Source: a virus. Taken from it: a stretch of 52,921 nucleotides of DNA. The position numbers and the translations under genes were made by a program. The number at the start of each line of letters is the position of its first letter. The stretch's first letter is position 1. The notes beneath the pieces were generated by a model. That model had not been told where the DNA came from. It worked only from the letters and a program-made list of their open reading frames with translations, and ran no database searches. The stretch lies in the IMG/VR virus record IMGVR_UViG_3300010263_000121, one strand, 5' to 3'. This document shows, piece after piece, positions 7,937-16,440 of the stretch.

Positions 7937-8818
7937 CTACTGACCCAGGATTCTCGCTCTAACTTCATCGGAAAAAGAGAATGGATCATAGCTTGCTGCC
8001 GCTTCTCTCTGCATGAAATCCTCTGTCCCGGGTAGGTATTCCGCAAGTGCGCTGTTCAACCACGTCTTACACAGCTTGATATGCCTCTTCTCCCGCCCTT
8101 CACGTTCCATCTGATTAGCATACCTTCGCGCCGCCTCAATTAGATCGTCGTGCTTAATCCCCAGTTTCCGGTCGGATACGATAGCTCTCCAGATTTCATA
8201 GGCTGCTGCTTTATCTTCTTTCCTGGGATAAGCATCCCAGAAGCGGTTGAACTCCTCCGGGTACTCCTTCTTCATCGCTCTCCTTAGGTTTGCTGTAGCC
8301 TTTCGCTCGCGTCCTGTTCGGATTGCACCTGCACTAGATACAGAATTATTGGTCTCATCTGGTAATGGTTGATCTGTAGTACTAGTTGTATCCGAAATTA
8401 CCGTATCCGGTAGAACCGTATCCGGTAATTTCGGACACGGAGCACGCTGGGCTTTTTCGCGTTCTTCCCTGCTTGGCGCAACTTCGATCTGCTCCTGAAT
8501 CACGTACACATTGCAGGAGAACTTCCCGTCTACCCGCTTCTGAATGACCTTGATGAAACCCCGTTCCTTGAGTTCTTCAAGATAGCTTGTGAAGGTGTCC
8601 TTGTTGATGTTCAGATCCCGGCATATCCTCGCCCGGCTCGGCCACGATGCCCTCCCTCCAAACTCCTCGTTGATACTAGCTCCGGCGATGCTGGAAAGAT
8701 AGCAGAACAGGCATTTTGCGCCGATGCTGATCTCGGGATTGCTCATCAGAAGAAACGGAGCCAGCCCATACCCCTTAGACAGCCACGACGTCTTACCAAA
8801 CTGAACACTCTCTCCCAC
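7937..8818 (-). CDS. Replication initiator / replisome-organizer-like protein (wHTH N-terminus, PDTV repeat linker)
   Basis: wHTH-like segment (ICRDLNINKDTFTSYLEELKERGFIKV), a PDTVLPDTVISDT linker typical of Firmicutes phage/plasmid Rep-organizer proteins, and a C-terminal FWDAYPRK segment. It shares this architecture with 10948..12216. Confidence 0.55.
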   Translation of the reverse strand: MGESVQFGKTSWLSKGYGLAPFLLMSNPEISIGAKCLFCYLSSIAGASINEEFGGRASWPSRARICRDLNINKDTFTSYLEELKERGFIKVIQKRVDGKFSCNVYVIQEQIEVAPSREEREKAQRAPCPKLPDTVLPDTVISDTTSTTDQPLPDETNNSVSSAGAIRTGRERKATANLRRAMKKEYPEEFNRFWDAYPRKEDKAAAYEIWRAIVSDRKLGIKHDDLIEAARRYANQMEREGREKRHIKLCKTWLNSALAEYLPGTEDFMQREAAASYDPFSFSDEVRARILGQ

Positions 8819-8883
8819 GTTCCCTTCCCTCCGGAAAATCGTCTAGGAAAGCAGGATATAAATCTCGTGCGATGAATAATAAA

Positions 8884-8915
8884 GTGATATCGTGGTACCG
8901 TGATATCATGGTATC
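8884..8915. promoter_or_regulatory. Two tandem 16-bp repeats (GTGATATCGTGGTACC / GTGATATCATGGTATC) upstream of the replication operon; candidate operator
   Basis: The direct repeat is seen in the sequence 66-97 nt upstream of start codon 8818. It contains GTGATA half-sites related to the motif at 24678. Confidence 0.4.
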
Positions 8916-9284
8916 ACTCAACAAATGGATGCGGCTGGTGCAAAAAGGCACCAGTTAGCATGCGCCTTAGATAGGCGCACTCTTAGGCACGAGAAAAATC
9001 ACCTATCTGTCTGCCCTCGGTCAAAGGCTGAACTGATGATTTTTCTCGTCCGGCACGTGCGGTCTTAAGCTGCCCCCAAAACAGACTTAAGACCGCATCC
9101 TCTTATATCCCGCTTTCCGTAAGCCGAAGATCATAAAAGGGGATCTCCCTGAAAGCAAAATCCCCTAGTCCCAGCCTATCGCAACCTGCTATTTGCTTGT
9201 ACGGAATATGGTTTGTTTCTCAGGAATCAATAGGGATGATTTCTCGTAACCGGTTGTTTTTTCCTGCCACTTTGTTCGGTTTAA

Positions 9285-9480
9285 TTCCTTGACATACTCC
9301 CCATGGTTAAAACCAGGGGATTCTGGTATCAAACAAAACCAGCCTACTTATATAGGTCTTACAGTTTCTATCCCAAGAGTTGATGCCCCAACTCTATGAA
9401 TATTAGTCGCTGCATTTAGGTCTCTATCGTGCAAGATGCCACAATTCGGACATGTCCATTTTCTATCCCCGAGTGTTAGC
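9285..9480 (-). ncRNA. Predicted omega (right-end) RNA scaffold of TnpB; extent is a guess
   Basis: Inferred by analogy with ISDra2-type elements, where the guide RNA overlaps the tnpB 3' end and the right-end hairpin. Only the hairpin at 9299-9319 is directly visible. Confidence 0.3.
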
Positions 9481-10463
9481 TCTTCGTAGACAAACTCACA
9501 GGCAGAGCATGTTTTGCTTGAAGGATAGAATCTGGGTATTTCAATAACGGTTGAACCTGTTTTCGAGCATTGGTATTTGAGGATATTGACAAAGCTGCTA
9601 TGGCTTAAATCAGATATTTTTCTGCCCCATAGTTTTTGCATAGCCTTAATATTCAAGTCTTCGATACAAATTGTTGCATATTCGCCAGCTAGTTTTAATG
9701 CTAACTTGAAGTGGAAATCCCGCCTTTTGTCAGCTAAGCGCTTGTGAGCCTTTGCCAATTGCCTCTTTGCTTGCTTATAGTGATTGGAACCCTTTTGTTT
9801 TTTGGAAAGTTCTCGATTTAGTTTCGCAATCTGCCTCTGACTCTGCTTAAAAAACTCAGGAGATACAATATTCTTGCCATCTGATGCCGTGAGAAACATT
9901 TTTAAACCAAAATCATACCCGACGCTTTTACCTGTTCGTGGTAGAATTTCGTTGTTTGATGTCTCACAAACGACATAGATATACAAGTCCCCTAATGAGT
10001 CTCGCTTGACTGTTACAGTTTTTACTTTCCCTTCAATTTCACGGGACTTGTGGTATTTATAGGTTCTACCTCCAATTTTAATTCGGTTGTCTGAATACAG
10101 CTTATACCCAGCTTGCTTAAGAGTGAAGGATTTATACTTCTTCACCTTCTTAAAGGACGGTGGTGATGATTTAATCCCATGCTCCCGATTACGGAAAAAC
10201 AATTTGTATCCCTTATCTATGCGTTGGGCAATATCTTGAATAGCTTGCGAGCCAAGGGAGTTCCAATCCGAGTATTTTGGGAGTTTCTTAAGTTTAGTCA
10301 AGTGCTTCATCAACGCATAAACATTAAGACTCTTACCGTATAGTCGATAATATCGCTTGTGCAAGGCAATGCAATGGTTGTAGATTATCCCAGCAATATT
10401 GATTTGTCGCTCTAAATATCTATTCCGCTTGTGCTGATATAACTTGAATTTGTAGGTCTTCAT
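9348..10463 (-). CDS. tnpB: TnpB RNA-guided endonuclease (IS605 OrfB family)
   Basis: 371 aa. RuvC triad contexts GYDFGLK, CIEDLNIK and HDRDLNAATNI, a zinc finger CSACEF...CPNCG, and the typical N-terminus MKTYKFKLY. Confidence 0.9.
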   Translation of the reverse strand: MKTYKFKLYQHKRNRYLERQINIAGIIYNHCIALHKRYYRLYGKSLNVYALMKHLTKLKKLPKYSDWNSLGSQAIQDIAQRIDKGYKLFFRNREHGIKSSPPSFKKVKKYKSFTLKQAGYKLYSDNRIKIGGRTYKYHKSREIEGKVKTVTVKRDSLGDLYIYVVCETSNNEILPRTGKSVGYDFGLKMFLTASDGKNIVSPEFFKQSQRQIAKLNRELSKKQKGSNHYKQAKRQLAKAHKRLADKRRDFHFKLALKLAGEYATICIEDLNIKAMQKLWGRKISDLSHSSFVNILKYQCSKTGSTVIEIPRFYPSSKTCSACEFVYEELTLGDRKWTCPNCGILHDRDLNAATNIHRVGASTLGIETVRPI

Positions 10464-10947
10464 TGCCCTGCACCTCCTTAAACGCCCTTTTGTTTTTCAA
10501 TATACTGCTTTATTGCTGACAACGGAGAACCGCCTACAGTTGAAACAAAATAACTATTTCACGAATAAACAATATCCTTATTGGTTTTATATTCCATGTC
10601 CGCATTATACAGGTTTAACCTACATAATATCAAGCAAATATTCGGCTTATATCCCCACGCCTAAAGTCGGGGGCTTTACGCCGATTTCGGGGTAAGCCCG
10701 TACTTCGACCGTTCTTCTTCTCCCATGCTGGCAAGATGATTGGCCAATATCTTTTCAAAAATCTCTTTCTGCTGCTCTGTTAGGTTTCCCACAAGTTTTC
10801 TCCGATCCATCTATAATCTGAATCTTTCGGTGCCGATTCGTTTAGGAGCCTCATACGGCTCTAATTTCCCCAAGACAGGTAAAATATCAGGTAGATACCT
10901 TTTCTCCTGTCCTGGCTTGTCCCTGGGCTTCTGGATGCAATTTAAGC

Positions 10948-12216
10948 CTAACCTTGCATCCTCTCCCATTTCTCCCATTGCTCAGTCAAGGTATGGCGAA
11001 GAAGAAGCTCATGCTCTTTGAGCATATCCCGTACTTCCTCATCACGATAAATTTTGATCTCCCGAATTTTTTCCTCATAAGCACGTAAACGTCTTTTGAG
11101 TTCTGAATCCACATCATCAAAGGGCTTTTCAACAACCTTCTCCGCTCGTACCATTTCAGTCTCTTGGCCAAATAAGCTGCTAAAGTTATGTCCTCTGTCC
11201 TCATAAGTGAAATCATCACGCGTAAACTTGCCTAAATCATTCCTGCTTGTCCAATTATCACGATTCAAAAAGTGCTCATAACCTTTACGCTCCAAGAATT
11301 CAACCAGACGATATTTGTGCTTAGCTCTATAGCTTTTGAATAAATCCGCATAGTTCAGGATTGCCATAAATAGATCTTCAGCAGAAAAATCAGTTAAAGC
11401 CTCATTCCAGGCATCGATGATCCTCTGCTTTGTCCTATCCCCTAAACGATAGTGAGGGTTAACCTCTTGATTATTCCAGAATGAAATCAGATCATCAGCC
11501 GTTAACTTCTTAGTTAGCAAAGCTGAATAATCACGCTTGGCTTTCTTTTCCTTCTCTCGCTTAAGTTGTTCTTGATAGGCCTTCATAGCAATAGATGCAA
11601 AATCATCCTCTGGTTCTTCTTCTGTCTTTAAATCAAAAGAGGATTCTCTCTCCACCAATTCGTCAGAATTGGTTTCTCTTTCTTCTTCACTTGTAGCTGC
11701 TATCTCTGAAATGGGTGAGAGATCATTATTGTTTTGATCATTATTACTAAGATCAATATTATTAGTGTCGGGTTTTCCAGATACGGGTTTACCAGTTACG
11801 GAAAACCCGTTTCTGGGTTCTAGCTGGGATTTCGTATTTTCCCCCCTCTTTTTATCCAGTAACGGATTTTCCGTTTCTGGCTTTACGCTGGCTTTTTGCA
11901 GAAGTCTCTCCTGCGGCACTTCATAGACGATTGTTTCCTGATGAGAAAATTGTCCAGTCTCGGGATCCCTGATTTTTATCCGTTCTATGTAACCCTTCTG
12001 CTCTAGTTCTTTCAGAATAGAGTTCACTGAATCACGACCATTGGTTGCTCGTTTGACCAAATCAGCCACAATTACGGTCCAGTTATCAGGCTTACTAAGC
12101 AGGTAGGCCAATAATCCTTTTGCCTGCCAACTTAGATTATCATCATTAAGTGGTCTGTGGTCTATCATCACAAACGGATTTTCACGCTTACTGGTTCTGA
12201 CTATATTTTTACTCAC
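10948..12216 (-). CDS. rep: Plasmid/phage-type replication initiator (wHTH N-terminus), AT-rich paralog of 7937..8818
   Basis: 422 aa with a GTG start and a GAAAGGGG RBS. wHTH segment NSILKELEQKGYIERIKIRD and a PET/KPD-rich linker (GKPVSGKPDTNN). It lies next to the iteron array. Confidence 0.6.
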   Translation of the reverse strand: MSKNIVRTSKRENPFVMIDHRPLNDDNLSWQAKGLLAYLLSKPDNWTVIVADLVKRATNGRDSVNSILKELEQKGYIERIKIRDPETGQFSHQETIVYEVPQERLLQKASVKPETENPLLDKKRGENTKSQLEPRNGFSVTGKPVSGKPDTNNIDLSNNDQNNNDLSPISEIAATSEEERETNSDELVERESSFDLKTEEEPEDDFASIAMKAYQEQLKREKEKKAKRDYSALLTKKLTADDLISFWNNQEVNPHYRLGDRTKQRIIDAWNEALTDFSAEDLFMAILNYADLFKSYRAKHKYRLVEFLERKGYEHFLNRDNWTSRNDLGKFTRDDFTYEDRGHNFSSLFGQETEMVRAEKVVEKPFDDVDSELKRRLRAYEEKIREIKIYRDEEVRDMLKEHELLLRHTLTEQWEKWERMQG

Positions 12217-12303
12217 AAAAAAAGCCCCTTTCTACCGAAAGAGACCTCCCACACGAATAGCAAGATAACCCAATATCTTCCTTGTCCTTAAGTGACATAA
12301 AGG

Positions 12304-12333
12304 TTGACATGATGCCCATCCTCATGCTACTAT
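12304..12333 (+). promoter_or_regulatory. Near-consensus sigma-70-type promoter facing away from rep
   Basis: TTGACA (12304-12309), an 18-nt spacer, then TGcTACTAT (extended -10, 12325-12333). Confidence 0.5.
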
Positions 12334-12339
12334 AAAGCA

Positions 12340-12446
12340 AGAAAGATACTTTTCGTGAGGGCCTTACCCGTGTGCCTGCAAGCAGTTGGGGGAGGCCTCT
12401 TTCTTTTTCACGTTTTACTGAAGGGCCGCGAGGCCCTTCTTTTTTT
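12340..12446 (+). ncRNA. Candidate ~105-nt small RNA (possible rep countertranscript)
   Basis: The segment is bounded by the promoter at 12304-12333 and a strong plus-strand terminator at 12420-12446. No credible ORF lies within it. Confidence 0.35.
12420..12446 (+). terminator. Rho-independent terminator (plus strand)
   Basis: Stem gaagggcc / ggcccttc with loop gcga, followed by 7 T. Confidence 0.75.
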
Positions 12447-12544
12447 GTCTGATCGACCATCAACTTCTTTCGACATTGGGCCGCCATTACCTTCTTGAGA
12501 GCGTGCAAAATCCGCATGGCAAGCGCATTTCATGATATCAGGAA

Positions 12545-12671
12545 ATCAAGAAATCAATTTTGACAGCAAGACATCAAGAAATCAAGATTACAAGCAAACA
12601 ATATTTCAAGAAAACAATATTTCAAGAAAACAAGATGGCAAGAAATCAAGAGATCAAGAAAACAATATTTC
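12545..12671. repeat. Iteron-like repeat array (candidate replication origin)
   Basis: ATCAAGAAATCAA(G) occurs at 12545 and 12573, with a related CAAGAAATCAAGAGATCAAGAAA at about 12638. ACAATATTTCAAGAAA occurs twice in tandem at 12598-12629, with a third partial copy at 12661-12671. The array is AT-rich and non-coding. Confidence 0.7.
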
Positions 12672-12715
12672 TGGATAGTGCCGAGATTCACAAACATGGC
12701 CCTAATATGGCGTAA

Positions 12716-12748
12716 AGAAAGCCCGCCTTTTAGAATCGGCGGGCTGCC
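12716..12748 (-). terminator. Rho-independent terminator after the KAP NTPase gene
   Basis: Stem agcccgcc / ggcgggct. On the minus strand it is followed by TTTCTTT. Confidence 0.6.
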
Positions 12749-12826
12749 CCTTGGGTCATTTCATCCTAGAAAAACATAGTCGTCTGAAGCTGTTCATGCA
12801 AGTAAGTGCTTTCAACTAGTCAGAAG

Positions 12827-14662
12827 TCAAGGGGAAGAGGTCTTGTCTGCAGCCCGATTTCCTATGTCGTTCAGGAGCCTGATCAAGTCTTCAAAACGTT
12901 GCTTTCTCATCCTGTCGAGTTCATCGGAAGAAGCCACGAACTCTCTAAGATGATCCGCAATAGCTTTCATCGCCTCTCCCTCTTGGCATGTAGCACAACC
13001 ATTGAGTTTTACCGTCAAAATATACTCCATCCTCCATATTGCTCGATTATTGAAGTCAAAGAGCTTGCGGAAGAGTTCGTGTTCCCGCAGAGTAGAGAAC
13101 AATTGGCGTAGGTTTACATGGCGGATGGCCGTCCAGAAGGCCTCTTCGTCATCGCTCATCATGGTTTCCAACAGATGCTCTATCTTAGCCACAGCATTGC
13201 GAACTTCAGCCTCTTGCTTTAGCTCTCTTATCTTCTCGACCAATTGGCTGTATCCATCATCTTCCGCTGAGTTAGCCGACAAGGCACCTTCATCTAGTTC
13301 GAGAATATTGCTTGTTCGCTCAGCAGCCGCATCAACGCCTCTTTCGATAGTACCAAAAAAGTCTTCCGGAAGATTATCGATATACCGGCGTTCAGCGATC
13401 TCTTTCATCACCTTATATATTGATGGGTATAACCTAAGCTCATACAATCCGGCTGAAGCATATTCCAATACTTGTGATACCGCAGTCTCTAGAGTGTGTT
13501 GCTCAAGTTCCTTAAACCGCCACAGTTTCTCGAGCGACGTAGCATACTCAGGAGGGGATTCACGCTGGCTTTCTTCCAGTTCCGAGAGAAACTTCTGTCT
13601 GTTGAAGAGACCCTTGACTATTGAGTCGAAGACGCTATTGCAGTAATACCTACCCCATGAACTATCTATACCGTACTTCTCGCAGATCTCAACAATACGT
13701 GACTTATGCGGTCGCTTGTTCGGCTTCGAAAGAGCGTTATGAACCGACCATTTAAGCCACGCGCCATATGGGTCTTTGATCTCGTTTTCGTCTTCGACAG
13801 TAAGGCCACCACCGGAAAACTCTATTGCCAGAACCAATGAAATAGCCAGCAAGTATCTTAGGCGTTCTCTATACCTTGACTCATTACCTATGCATTGAAA
13901 GATGTTTCGAAAACACTCCAGCGCCAGCCCGAGATACCTAAGATTCGTTTGGCCACTCTTTGTGTAGATTCCGACTAACATATCAATATGCTCTTGCACA
14001 AACGTCATTAGCTCAGGCTTGTTGCTGCAGTGATCCGAAACGATGCTCTCAACCACTTGCCTTAGATCTGGCGAGAAAGAGACTATCCTCCGAATGACTT
14101 TTTCACGCATGCGCAAATAATTCGTTTGCCACTTGCTTTGCACTTCTTCTTCGTTTGCGATAAACACGACCTTTGCCCCATCTGGGTCAATGAACAGAGA
14201 ATAGATGGTCCCAAGCAGTTCGTTAATGTCAACCGATTCTGGCATTCGTTCCAAGTCGTCCACAAACAACGCATTGCGCGACCAATTTAGCTCTTCCAGC
14301 GTCTTCTGCTTGAAGAATCCCCCTGCTCTACCAGCGGCTTTCAACATCTTCTCTGCGCGAGGAATAGCCCCGATAAGCTCGATGACTGGCTCAATGAACG
14401 CGGGGCCCAACCACTGCTGACCTGCGAAGAGCTTACTATACAAGATCTGCCTAGTCACAGTGTTAATATCCTGTATCCCGTACAAAGAGATGTAAATAGG
14501 GGTCAATCCAAGTTCTTTTGCTAGGGGAATCATTGAATTGCGAACAAAATAAGTCTTTCCAGAACCCCACCGTCCATTCAGCAAAACCGCATAATCAGTC
14601 TTTGGGGTTTCTAGATATTGCCTCAAGGTCTCTTCGCATATCATGCAAATCCACCTCGCCAT
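12827..14662 (-). CDS. KAP-family P-loop NTPase
   Basis: 611 aa. Walker A GRWGSGKT (the KAP-type GxWGxGK[ST] signature), Walker B LFVDDLER, and a long helical C-terminal region. Confidence 0.7.
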   Translation of the reverse strand: MARWICMICEETLRQYLETPKTDYAVLLNGRWGSGKTYFVRNSMIPLAKELGLTPIYISLYGIQDINTVTRQILYSKLFAGQQWLGPAFIEPVIELIGAIPRAEKMLKAAGRAGGFFKQKTLEELNWSRNALFVDDLERMPESVDINELLGTIYSLFIDPDGAKVVFIANEEEVQSKWQTNYLRMREKVIRRIVSFSPDLRQVVESIVSDHCSNKPELMTFVQEHIDMLVGIYTKSGQTNLRYLGLALECFRNIFQCIGNESRYRERLRYLLAISLVLAIEFSGGGLTVEDENEIKDPYGAWLKWSVHNALSKPNKRPHKSRIVEICEKYGIDSSWGRYYCNSVFDSIVKGLFNRQKFLSELEESQRESPPEYATSLEKLWRFKELEQHTLETAVSQVLEYASAGLYELRLYPSIYKVMKEIAERRYIDNLPEDFFGTIERGVDAAAERTSNILELDEGALSANSAEDDGYSQLVEKIRELKQEAEVRNAVAKIEHLLETMMSDDEEAFWTAIRHVNLRQLFSTLREHELFRKLFDFNNRAIWRMEYILTVKLNGCATCQEGEAMKAIADHLREFVASSDELDRMRKQRFEDLIRLLNDIGNRAADKTSSP

Positions 14663-14731
14663 CAGTTGGATAGAGTCTGAGTACTAGGTTCATCATCTTA
14701 ACCCCAGAAGATGGAGCCGGGAGGATGCTTT

Positions 14732-15415
14732 CTATCTCTTCCATCCGTCTATATCGAGATAAGCAAAAAGCATCGAACACAACCTAAGTAAGACTTCTGC
14801 TGATTCTGAGCTGTCTTTAAGGGCAGAAACCATCTCGGTGAAGGATTCTTCATCCCGAAATCGGCTGAACACTGCGTGGAAGAACCAAATGGCGACATTC
14901 CAAAACTCGCCTTCGCGAATTCTCTTGGCTCGGGAGACATCCTCGAGGTAGGACATCATTTCCCTCATAGCAAGATAGGTCCGCTCGGCCACTGTATGGG
15001 TAACCATACCGCGCGCGTAGTAACTCGAGAGTGTCTTGAGCTCCTGAACCATACTCCGGACATCTAGATCGGGGGAGGGAATCTCCCTTGATGAACCGGT
15101 CTTCCGCAGCTCTTCATTTTCTGCCTGAAGTGCCGCGAGCTGCTCACTCAACCTGTCGATATCAGCCCGGAAACCGCTGTTCTCCTGCTCAAGCTGCTCA
15201 AGCTGGGAAAGAAGCTCAGCCTTCTCTTTGGTTAGCTCCTGGATCTTCTGGTTTTTCTTCTCGATCTCCACCATAAGCACGGCCTTTCCGGCATCCACAG
15301 GTTCAGCGCTGGGCTGATTCTCTGGTATGAGCCCCAACTCACTCAATCCCTCGTTGATCTGCTGTGAGTCTTTAATCAAGCGGGCGGCCAGTCCTTCGCG
15401 CTTCGCTGCACTCAC
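14732..15415 (-). CDS. Coiled-coil protein translationally coupled to ParA (partition adaptor or system component)
   Basis: 227 aa. A heptad-rich central part (IQELTKEKAELLSQLEQLEQENSGFRADIDRLSEQLAALQAENEELRK). The GTG start directly abuts the ParA stop codon. Confidence 0.4.
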   Translation of the reverse strand: MSAAKREGLAARLIKDSQQINEGLSELGLIPENQPSAEPVDAGKAVLMVEIEKKNQKIQELTKEKAELLSQLEQLEQENSGFRADIDRLSEQLAALQAENEELRKTGSSREIPSPDLDVRSMVQELKTLSSYYARGMVTHTVAERTYLAMREMMSYLEDVSRAKRIREGEFWNVAIWFFHAVFSRFRDEESFTEMVSALKDSSESAEVLLRLCSMLFAYLDIDGWKR

Positions 15416-16402
15416 TTAGACCGCCTCCGTTTCAACCGCCAAACCGAGGAGCTCCTTGGCGAGATCCATGAACTGCTTTGCAGCCTCACTGTTGGGATCG
15501 TACGCGCCGATCGGCTTATCATCAAACTGCGCTTCGCTTACCGCATTGAGCTTCTTGATGACGGTCTTCGCGAACGGATACTGGATCACTTCTGGGATGG
15601 TATTTATGAACTCTTTCGTGGTATTGGTGCGGTAGTCGGCCATGGTTATCACGAAGCGGTTTATCGTCAGGCGCTTGTTGATCTGGCGTACTGAACCAAT
15701 AGTCTTGAGGAGCAGCTTAACTCCTTCCAGGGAGAACTTGCTGACCGCGATGGGGATGAGGCAGGAATCCGCCGCCACCAGAGCGTTGATCGTAAGTAGG
15801 CCAAGCGAAGGAGGGCAGTCGATGAAAATATAGTCGTACTTAGCGAGATGGTCCTGTGATGCGAGCAGCGAGTTAAAGAGCACAGACTCCCGGCTCATCC
15901 GCATGATGAGCTCCACCTCCGCTTCGCTAAGCGCAATCGTGGCCGGCACTACACCGAATCCGAATTTGCTGTCCACAATCGCTTCGTGGATAGGAAACCC
16001 ATCGATCAAGACTTCCGTCATGGTTGCCGTAGCGATGGCTTCGGCGTTGATGCCAACACCCGTGGATGAGTTCGACTGCGGATCCATATCTAGCAGCAGT
16101 ACTTTCTTGCCGAGCTTCCCAAGAGCTTCGCTTAAGTTGATAGATAGCGTTGACTTGCCGACGCCACCCTTCTGGTTCACGATCGCTATAATCTCCGGGA
16201 GCTTCGATCCCTCGGTCGATTCGTTGCTCAGGGTATGTAAGTAAGCGTTGGCATCTTCGACCCGCACCCGCCATTGAGCCCCTACCTTAGTCGCCGGTAT
16301 AGTTCCGTTCGTTATCAGCTTATGGGCCGTATTGTAGTGAACCCGCAGGTATTTCGCTAAGGCAGCAACGCCGATGAGGTACTCTTCGTTTCCCATGGCC
16401 AC
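15416..16402 (-). CDS. parA: ParA/Soj-family ATPase with N-terminal excisionase/MerR-type HTH (type-Ia-like)
   Basis: Deviant Walker A NQKGGVGKST. The N-terminal HTH is LAKYLRVHYNTAHKLITNGTIPATKVGAQWRV. A likelier start is ATG 16396, with GAGGTG 5 nt upstream. Confidence 0.85.
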   Translation of the reverse strand: MAMGNEEYLIGVAALAKYLRVHYNTAHKLITNGTIPATKVGAQWRVRVEDANAYLHTLSNESTEGSKLPEIIAIVNQKGGVGKSTLSINLSEALGKLGKKVLLLDMDPQSNSSTGVGINAEAIATATMTEVLIDGFPIHEAIVDSKFGFGVVPATIALSEAEVELIMRMSRESVLFNSLLASQDHLAKYDYIFIDCPPSLGLLTINALVAADSCLIPIAVSKFSLEGVKLLLKTIGSVRQINKRLTINRFVITMADYRTNTTKEFINTIPEVIQYPFAKTVIKKLNAVSEAQFDDKPIGAYDPNSEAAKQFMDLAKELLGLAVETEAV

Positions 16403-16404
16403 AC

Positions 16405-16440
16405 CTCACATTCACATTTCACATCCGTTCACACAATCAC
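16405..16440. promoter_or_regulatory. Cluster of (T/C)TCACA direct repeats immediately upstream of parA (operator or centromere-like candidate)
   Basis: CTCACA at 16405, and TTCACA at 16411, 16418 and 16428, plus AATCAC at 16435. On the minus strand these read as TGTGAA repeats. Confidence 0.4.

Follow-up and report, generated by a model that had tools for sequence, protein, structure and literature searches.

The stretch of DNA analysed here, the 52,921 nucleotides (nt) of the IMG/VR virus record IMGVR_UViG_3300010263_000121 (hereafter 'the window'), carries on its minus strand an insertion sequence (IS) of the IS200/IS605 type, in which a gene for TnpB, by homology an RNA-guided nuclease, lies between two preserved ends and beside the remnants of a transposase gene, tnpA. 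We conclude with high confidence that positions 9289-10691 are a non-autonomous element of the IS608 type, whose TnpB and omega RNA are predicted to cut those copies of the insertion flank that are preceded by TTAC. The features on which this account is built are given below from left end to right end, which on this strand means from high to low coordinates.

10676-10810, minus strand: truncated open reading frame (ORF) of 44 amino acids, the last four codons and stop of which (PKSA, then stop) are read from the IS left end.
10692-10695, minus strand: TTAC, the left cleavage and target tetranucleotide and the predicted transposon-associated motif (TAM) of TnpB, located in the phage backbone (four contexts and about 12 distant relatives).
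9289-10691, minus strand: the whole IS608-like non-autonomous element, about 1403 nt.
10653-10677, minus strand: left guide AAAG (10677-10674) followed by the left imperfect palindrome, IP_L (10673-10653, with a bulged T), on the basis of sequence, DNA fold and recurrence in relatives.
10604-10633, minus strand: sigma-70-like promoter, TTGATA-18-TATAAT, with 11 of 12 matches in a consensus scan, inside the left end and upstream of the tnpA stub.
10475-10597, minus strand: tnpA remnant, made up of codons 1-12 with a TGA created by the junction (10597-10559) and of the last 28 codons (10558-10475).
9348-10463, minus strand: tnpB, 371 amino acids, an RNA-guided RuvC nuclease by homology, with D184/E268/D348, with C319, C322, C338 and C341, and with the ribosome-binding site AAGGAGGTG upstream.
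9289-9422, minus strand: predicted omega RNA scaffold, overlapping the last roughly 75 nt of tnpB and the right end, with covarying helices from about 9394 to 9289.
9289-9323, minus strand: right-end core, consisting of the guide GAAT (9323-9320), the right imperfect palindrome, IP_R (9319-9299), and a 10-nt tail, AGTATGTCAA, that ends in the cleavage site TCAA (9292-9289).
9269-9288, minus strand: predicted omega RNA guide and the flank that templates it, GGAATTAAACCGAACAAAGT, of which 16-20 nt would be used.

The two ends were placed by comparison with independent copies of the element, the source of which was a set of short metagenome contigs that encode TnpB homologues 97-98% identical to that of the window and were found by protein search. 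In blastn, the DNA match to these copies is limited to 10690-9288. Three unrelated contexts (the window, the L001 group and L011) share the right-end sequence GAAT-CCCCTGGTTTTAACCATGGGG-AGTATGTCAA and diverge directly after its final TCAA, which sets the right end at 9289. On the other side, the left end is immediately preceded by TTAC in four unrelated contexts, whose junctions read as follows (a slash marks the boundary of the element).

Window: GCTTAC/CCCGAAATC
L027: GATTAC/CCGAAATC
L001 group: AATTAC/CGAAATC
L026: CTTTAC/CGAAATC

The sole difference among the four is a run of one to three C's, and this variable run leaves the left boundary uncertain by 1-2 nt. A first-pass annotation of the window had proposed an IS200/IS605 element at 9285-10700, bracketed by hairpins taken to be its ends. 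The assignment is borne out by the flanks of the independent copies, which diverge at TTAC and TCAA and thus identify the hairpins as subterminal palindromes; the alignment with related tnpB loci that had been recommended fixed the left end, the right end and the predicted TAM, TTAC. The proposed extent was nearly matched and is here refined to 9289 (after TCAA) and 10691 (after TTAC at 10695-10692).

The hairpins themselves lie on the same strand, share one design and occupy exactly the coordinates first given for them. Read along the minus strand, IP_L (10673-10653) is CCCC-CG-ACTTTAGG-CG-T-GGGG and IP_R (9319-9299) is CCCC-TGG-TTTTAA-CCA-T-GGGG, each with a bulged T. By folding energy alone, neither hairpin is more than modestly unusual (z -2.6 and -2.0); in 39 distinct relatives, however, the right-end hairpin shows covariation, and the design of the left end recurs in distant ones. 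Among 80 distant relatives from many phyla, with proteins 53-74% identical to that of the window, 56 carry the pattern GAGT[AG][TC]GTCAA after a hairpin that is preceded by GAAT, and wherever a left end is recognisable it is organised as TTAC, 12-14 nt and an AAAG-hairpin. There is no target-site duplication, the two flanks not being repeats of each other, and there are no terminal inverted repeats. Searches with exact end patterns returned no match in viral contigs for the right end, and for the left end none in genome contigs and two in metagenome contigs, both of them full-length copies; a megablast search of 8800-11000 against phage and plasmid collections gave no match. Around the left guide and its hairpin we also observed an outer stem (CGGC-GTAAAG-hairpin-ATATAA-GCCG, window 10640-10685, minus strand), the pairs of which appear to covary among L039, L046, L047, L059 and L063 (TGTC/GACA, GAGC/GCTC and GTGCC/GGCAC). 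This outer stem may be a further DNA or RNA structure.

Between these ends, the protein encoded by tnpB matches the Pfam families OrfB_IS605 (E value 1.3e-23) and Cas12f1-like_TNB (E value 2.7e-22), and its residues 3-366 align to the ISDra2 TnpB structures 8bf8, 8exa and 8h1j (E value 6.6e-51), RuvC residues against RuvC residues. The complete RuvC triad and zinc finger that had been read from the translation are present as D184/E268/D348 and CxxC...CxxC; in an alignment of 12 sequences, with relatives 63-86% identical, D184, E268, C319, C322, C338 and C341 are invariant and D348 nearly so. In ISDra2 TnpB, the substitutions D191A and E278A abolish activity (PMC8612924). Close alignment, in which inactivating changes could have come to light, revealed none in TnpB, and the ratio of non-synonymous to synonymous substitution rates (dN/dS) of 0.11-0.14 against L001, L011 and L028 indicates that tnpB is under purifying selection. 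One apparently truncated tnpB, a 320-residue gene call in L113, was dismissed as an artefact, as the L113 DNA encodes the identical 371-residue protein. Judged by its residues, TnpB looks catalytically intact.

This bears on an alternative in which TnpB has been domesticated, either as a TldR-like RNA-guided DNA-binding regulator or in some other non-nuclease role, with the hairpins acting as regulatory sequences. Such a career would have precedents in nuclease-dead TnpB repressors, some of them linked to prophages (bioRxiv 10.1101/2023.11.30.569447), and the gene does lie between replication genes on the same strand. Yet neither the RuvC triad nor the zinc finger is damaged, the whole unit from left end (LE) through tnpB to right end (RE) is 95-98% identical in unrelated contexts with flanks that diverge at TTAC and TCAA, related phages do without the element, and the guide is simply the insertion flank. 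We thus regard domestication as extremely improbable; a TldR-like TnpB as such, marked by RuvC loss or C-terminal truncation and by lost ends, is ruled out by the intact catalytic residues and the presence of both ends.

The state of tnpA becomes clear from sibling copies. L026 and L027 have the matching left end, an intact Y1 TnpA of 131 amino acids (HUH motif HVHLL, catalytic-tyrosine region NSYF) and a tnpB that is 98% identical to that of the window, and L011 retains the 3' end of tnpA, tnpB and the right end. By alignment, blastn and tblastn with the L027 TnpA, the window is without positions 207-473 of L027, a segment of 267 nt or 89 codons that includes the HUH motif. The initial statement that no tnpA is present therefore stands in that the window holds no intact gene, but not as a simple absence, for two remnants of an internally deleted tnpA remain; no other tnpA was found within the window. 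On this sequence comparison, the element is a recent internal-deletion derivative of a tnpA plus tnpB element and not one that was tnpB-only from its ancestry. The L001/L028 lineage (L001:2037-2300 and L028:305-570, compared with L027:60-620) lost tnpA by a deletion with a different breakpoint and likewise kept tnpB, and from these distinct breakpoints it follows that this IS family has given rise to tnpB-only derivatives on at least two occasions. Loss of tnpA with retention of tnpB is, on the same alignments, recurrent. The L001/L028 sister lineage, 95% identical, occupies one conserved site, as seen in over 10 contigs that stem from several samples.

With its tnpA broken, the element cannot move alone, and its excision or insertion would need Y1 TnpA provided in trans from full-length siblings, of which copies with an intact tnpA and 98% identity occur in similar samples. 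The promoter-like site, which precedes the tnpA stub within the left end, is likely the former promoter of tnpA and now that of tnpB and the omega RNA.

For the omega RNA, we aligned 40 sequences (the window, its siblings and 37 distant relatives), each taken as the 170 nt that end at the right end. RNAalifold returned a consensus of 31 pairs in six helices, and 18 of the 31 pairs show compensatory changes. The cells of this consensus structure are paired in 95.3% of cases compared to 76.0% in shuffles, and the covariation score of 0.564, compared to 0.188 in shuffles, was reached by none of 500 shuffled alignments; sliding the pairing partners by one to three columns as a control reduced it to 0.06-0.14. 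Five of the six helices covary, the right-end hairpin among them, and the window sequence fits all consensus helices. A possible long-range GAC/GUC pairing that starts at about 9422 is invariant and thus uninformative on covariation. The conservation of the scaffold is seen at the DNA level, and the compensatory pairs support the earlier proposal that an omega RNA spans the 3' end of tnpB and the right end.

By analogy with ISDra2, from which its length was also taken (PMC8612924), the guide is predicted to be read from the adjacent flank between 9288 and about 9269. This sequence, GGAATTAAACCGAACAAAGT, lies directly 3' of the right end and is unique in the window; its first position falls close to the point, just below about 9285, from which the first-pass annotation had expected the guide to be read.

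An uninterrupted version of the site, which had been suggested as something to look for in related phages, was found in L022, a contig from an anaerobic-digester metagenome whose Rep gene is 98% identical to that of the window. L022 matches the window at 97-98% over 12626-10691 and 9288-9241, so that the match breaks off and resumes precisely at the ends of the IS, and in place of the element it reads CACACTTTAC/GGAATTAAACCGAACAAAGT, which is to say TTAC followed by a perfect 20-nt match to the guide (L022 2300-2319). By its sequence, the L022 site is what the retention/homing model would have TnpB act on (PMC8612924; bioRxiv 10.1101/2023.03.14.532601). The IS is also absent from the related phages L012 and L013 and from G001, the nearest genome, which shares phage DNA. 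We rejected L012 and L013 as exact empty sites, as the sequence to the left of the insertion point is unrelated in them.

These features suggest how the element may work. A transcript from the left-end promoter would yield TnpB and, after processing of its 3' part, the omega RNA, with a scaffold from about 9422-9289 and a guide from the adjoining flank, 9288 to about 9269. The TnpB-omega RNA complex would then recognise 5'-TTAC followed by GGAATTAAACCGAACA... and presumably cut such DNA, the target being either the donor joint that would form after excision by TnpA in trans, predicted to read GGGCTTAC/GGAATT, or an IS-free homologous allele in a co-resident relative. Recombinational repair from an IS-bearing copy might in turn restore the element or spread it. 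The cutting of a TAM-flanked donor joint by TnpB, and the promotion of retention by it, have been described (PMC8612924; bioRxiv 10.1101/2023.03.14.532601).

The comparison with L022 also uncovered a deletion next to the element. A stretch of 170 nt (L022 2130-2299) is absent from the window and is bounded by two TTACs, one at L022 2125-2128, which is the one that abuts the left end in the window, and one at 2296-2299. It encodes the C-terminal 30 residues of an ORF of 64-70 amino acids that is intact in L022 and L111 and is represented in the window by the truncated ORF listed above. As the 1 kb of L022 around the site contains only four TTACs and the far breakpoint falls exactly at one of them, a route that depends on the target site is indicated and a random breakpoint is unlikely. 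Possible routes are two insertions, one at each TTAC, with later recombination between the copies, action of TnpA on two target sites, and repeat-mediated deletion. A simple deletion between TTACC repeats with a left end of the L027 type predicts three C's at the junction, where the window has four, and precise joining by TnpA at TTAC leaves the same one-base mismatch unless the left end had CCC; the four-C junction thus does not discriminate among the three routes. The arrangement of IS plus deletion recurs at 100% and 99.9% identity in contigs from other samples, and the protein index holds 8-9 contigs with the truncated ORF. That the arrangement is identical across samples indicates that the IS and the deletion are fixed in the phage lineage.

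An insertion that is fixed, identical across samples and without signs of ongoing movement at the site is also what would be seen if the element were a stranded and decaying IS copy, with a TnpB and omega RNA that are unexpressed or inactive in the host and of no consequence for the phage. The destruction of tnpA and the lack of any other in the window fit such an inert passenger, as does the reported inactivity of HpyTnpB, the Helicobacter pylori IS608 TnpB, in a heterologous assay (interference in Escherichia coli; bioRxiv 10.1101/2023.03.14.532601). Against this, TnpB is free of inactivating changes and has a dN/dS of 0.11-0.14, although the selection recorded by this value acts on the IS family and need not act on this particular copy; no damage is seen in the omega RNA helices, at either end or in the promoter-like site; and the L001 group lost tnpA separately yet kept tnpB, as expected if tnpB-only elements persist by virtue of TnpB function. 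On this balance, an inert passenger seems unlikely to us.

Some observations nevertheless count against the account that we prefer, that of a non-autonomous IS608-type element with a TnpB-omega RNA able to cut TTAC-flanked copies of its insertion flank. The reported inactivity of IS608 TnpB means that intact motifs are no guarantee of activity. The promoter is a consensus match only, and a search of 8500-11500 against Rfam 15 at a permissive E value returned no matching family. The spacing from TTAC to the hairpin is 18 nt in the window, compared to 16-17 nt in sibling copies and 19 nt in IS608. There is no functional tnpA in the window, so that mobility depends on TnpA from elsewhere; if excision does not occur, retention has no substrate, and only the variant in which the nuclease serves homing or competition would apply.

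The host sequence is that of a tailed phage, with a terminase large subunit, a major head protein, a tape measure and tail proteins that all match PHROGs, and the genes on both sides of the element match replication-initiator or DnaD-like PHROGs, in agreement with the replication-module location proposed at the outset. The two flanking genes had also been described as paralogues. Their rep-type identity is confirmed by the PHROGs matches; paralogy is only weakly supported, the two being 23% identical in the N-terminal winged helix (E value 4e-4). As had been noticed, the element is richer in AT than the backbone, with a guanine plus cytosine content of 39.5% compared to 51.4% for the whole window; the adjoining Rep-side flank is nearly as AT-rich (41.4%). 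An AT-rich Rep module (10948-16440) adjoins the IS, and a P-loop nucleoside triphosphatase of the KAP family (Pfam E value 2.5e-9) is encoded nearby, at 12827-14662.

On its other side the element lies next to a mosaic junction. On the Rep side, and as far as 9241, the window is L022-like (98%); from 9271 it is L012-like (88%), and L022 is there only 71% identical. A short conserved block (GGCAGGA.AAAAC...TTGCGAGAA) was observed outside the IS, 17-48 nt from its right end, on the minus strand at 9241-9271 in the window and at L022:2317-2347 and L012:5188-5220. As the mosaic junction falls at this block, the IS sits at a module-exchange boundary.

The L022 target, the TTAC-bounded deletion and the position at a module junction motivate a more far-reaching reading, in which the phage-borne TnpB-omega RNA goes beyond retention and serves as a nuclease of homing or of competition among related phages or phage-plasmids. 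We put this forward tentatively, as a minority possibility that is rather doubtful at present. Concrete support for it, as for the roles in retention or in competition between mobile elements that the first-pass annotation had suggested, comes from L022, which is free of the IS, has a 98%-identical Rep module and contains both the TAM and a perfect match to the guide. If the reading were true, a co-infecting rival would be cut and then either excluded or converted, acquiring both the IS and the 170-bp deletion linked to it, and the homing-endonuclease logic of phage marker exclusion would extend to RNA-guided transposon nucleases. Breaks made by TnpB could, moreover, promote module exchange, given that the IS lies 17-48 nt from the module-switch junction, and the 170-bp deletion from TTAC to TTAC could have been left behind by the action of TnpA on a pair of target sites or by recombination between two transient IS copies.

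Elements of the IS605/TnpB kind have previously been reported in phages and prophages. At least 49 IMG/VR contigs (L114-L162) encode relatives of the TnpB clade described here, with 45-74% identity. Some of these contigs have two TnpB copies, for example IMGVR_UViG_3300031998_000006. The basic finding accordingly adds little that is new, the element being an ordinary member of a well-known transposon family. What goes beyond routine annotation is the natural TAM and guide target in a sibling replicon, the TTAC-bounded deletion and the position at a module junction, which together with ends, TAM, guide, autonomous parent (98%) and uninterrupted target all defined from sequence make this a well-documented natural case. 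The compact TnpB of 371 amino acids and its strongly covarying omega RNA scaffold of roughly 110-135 nt may also interest those who mine for editors with a TTAC TAM.

Among the closest known systems is IS608 of H. pylori, a member of the IS605 group with tnpA and tnpB, in which the left cleavage site and target (C_L) is TTAC, the left guide (G_L) AAAG, the right guide (G_R) GAAT and the right cleavage site (C_R) TCAA, 10 nt from IP_R (PMC3201880, PMC5934647). The window element has the same tetranucleotides, AAAG/TTAC and GAAT/TCAA, in the same relative positions, and shares the single-strand 'peel and paste' architecture, in which the subterminal palindromes carry an extrahelical T and both terminal inverted repeats and target duplication are absent. 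It differs from IS608 in its internally deleted tnpA, in the TTAC-to-hairpin spacing given above and in its carrier, an uncultured Bacillota-type phage from anaerobic digesters. A Y1 TnpA, by which the IS608-like family is recognised, is missing from the window, and non-autonomous derivatives are a recognised state of that family. In a PDB search, made without direct comparison with the H. pylori protein, the TnpB of the window was closer to ISDra2 TnpB.

The TnpB-omega RNA (or reRNA) of ISDra2 from Deinococcus radiodurans is another close system, with homology over the full length and the same catalytic and zinc-binding residues. In that system the scaffold comes from the 3' end of tnpB and the right end, the guide from the flank, and the TAM is the transposon target site (PMC8612924), as is predicted here; unlike in ISDra2, the predicted TAM is TTAC and not TTGAT, and the protein has 371 rather than 408 amino acids. 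The tnpB-only ISGst families of Geobacillus stearothermophilus (Meers et al.) resemble the element in having tnpB and an omega RNA between intact LE and RE, with TnpA elsewhere, and in a donor joint or empty site that contains the TAM and a guide match. Here, by contrast, the causal deletion is visible in the 12-codon tnpA stub, a sister lineage carries an independent deletion, and the carrier is a phage and not a chromosome. A tnpB-only configuration is the majority state of tnpB genes (bioRxiv 10.1101/2023.03.14.532601). SfaTnpB, finally, has an experimentally supported TTAC TAM (PMC12781874), the motif that four insertion junctions predict for the TnpB described here, and is compared with it in the TAM only.

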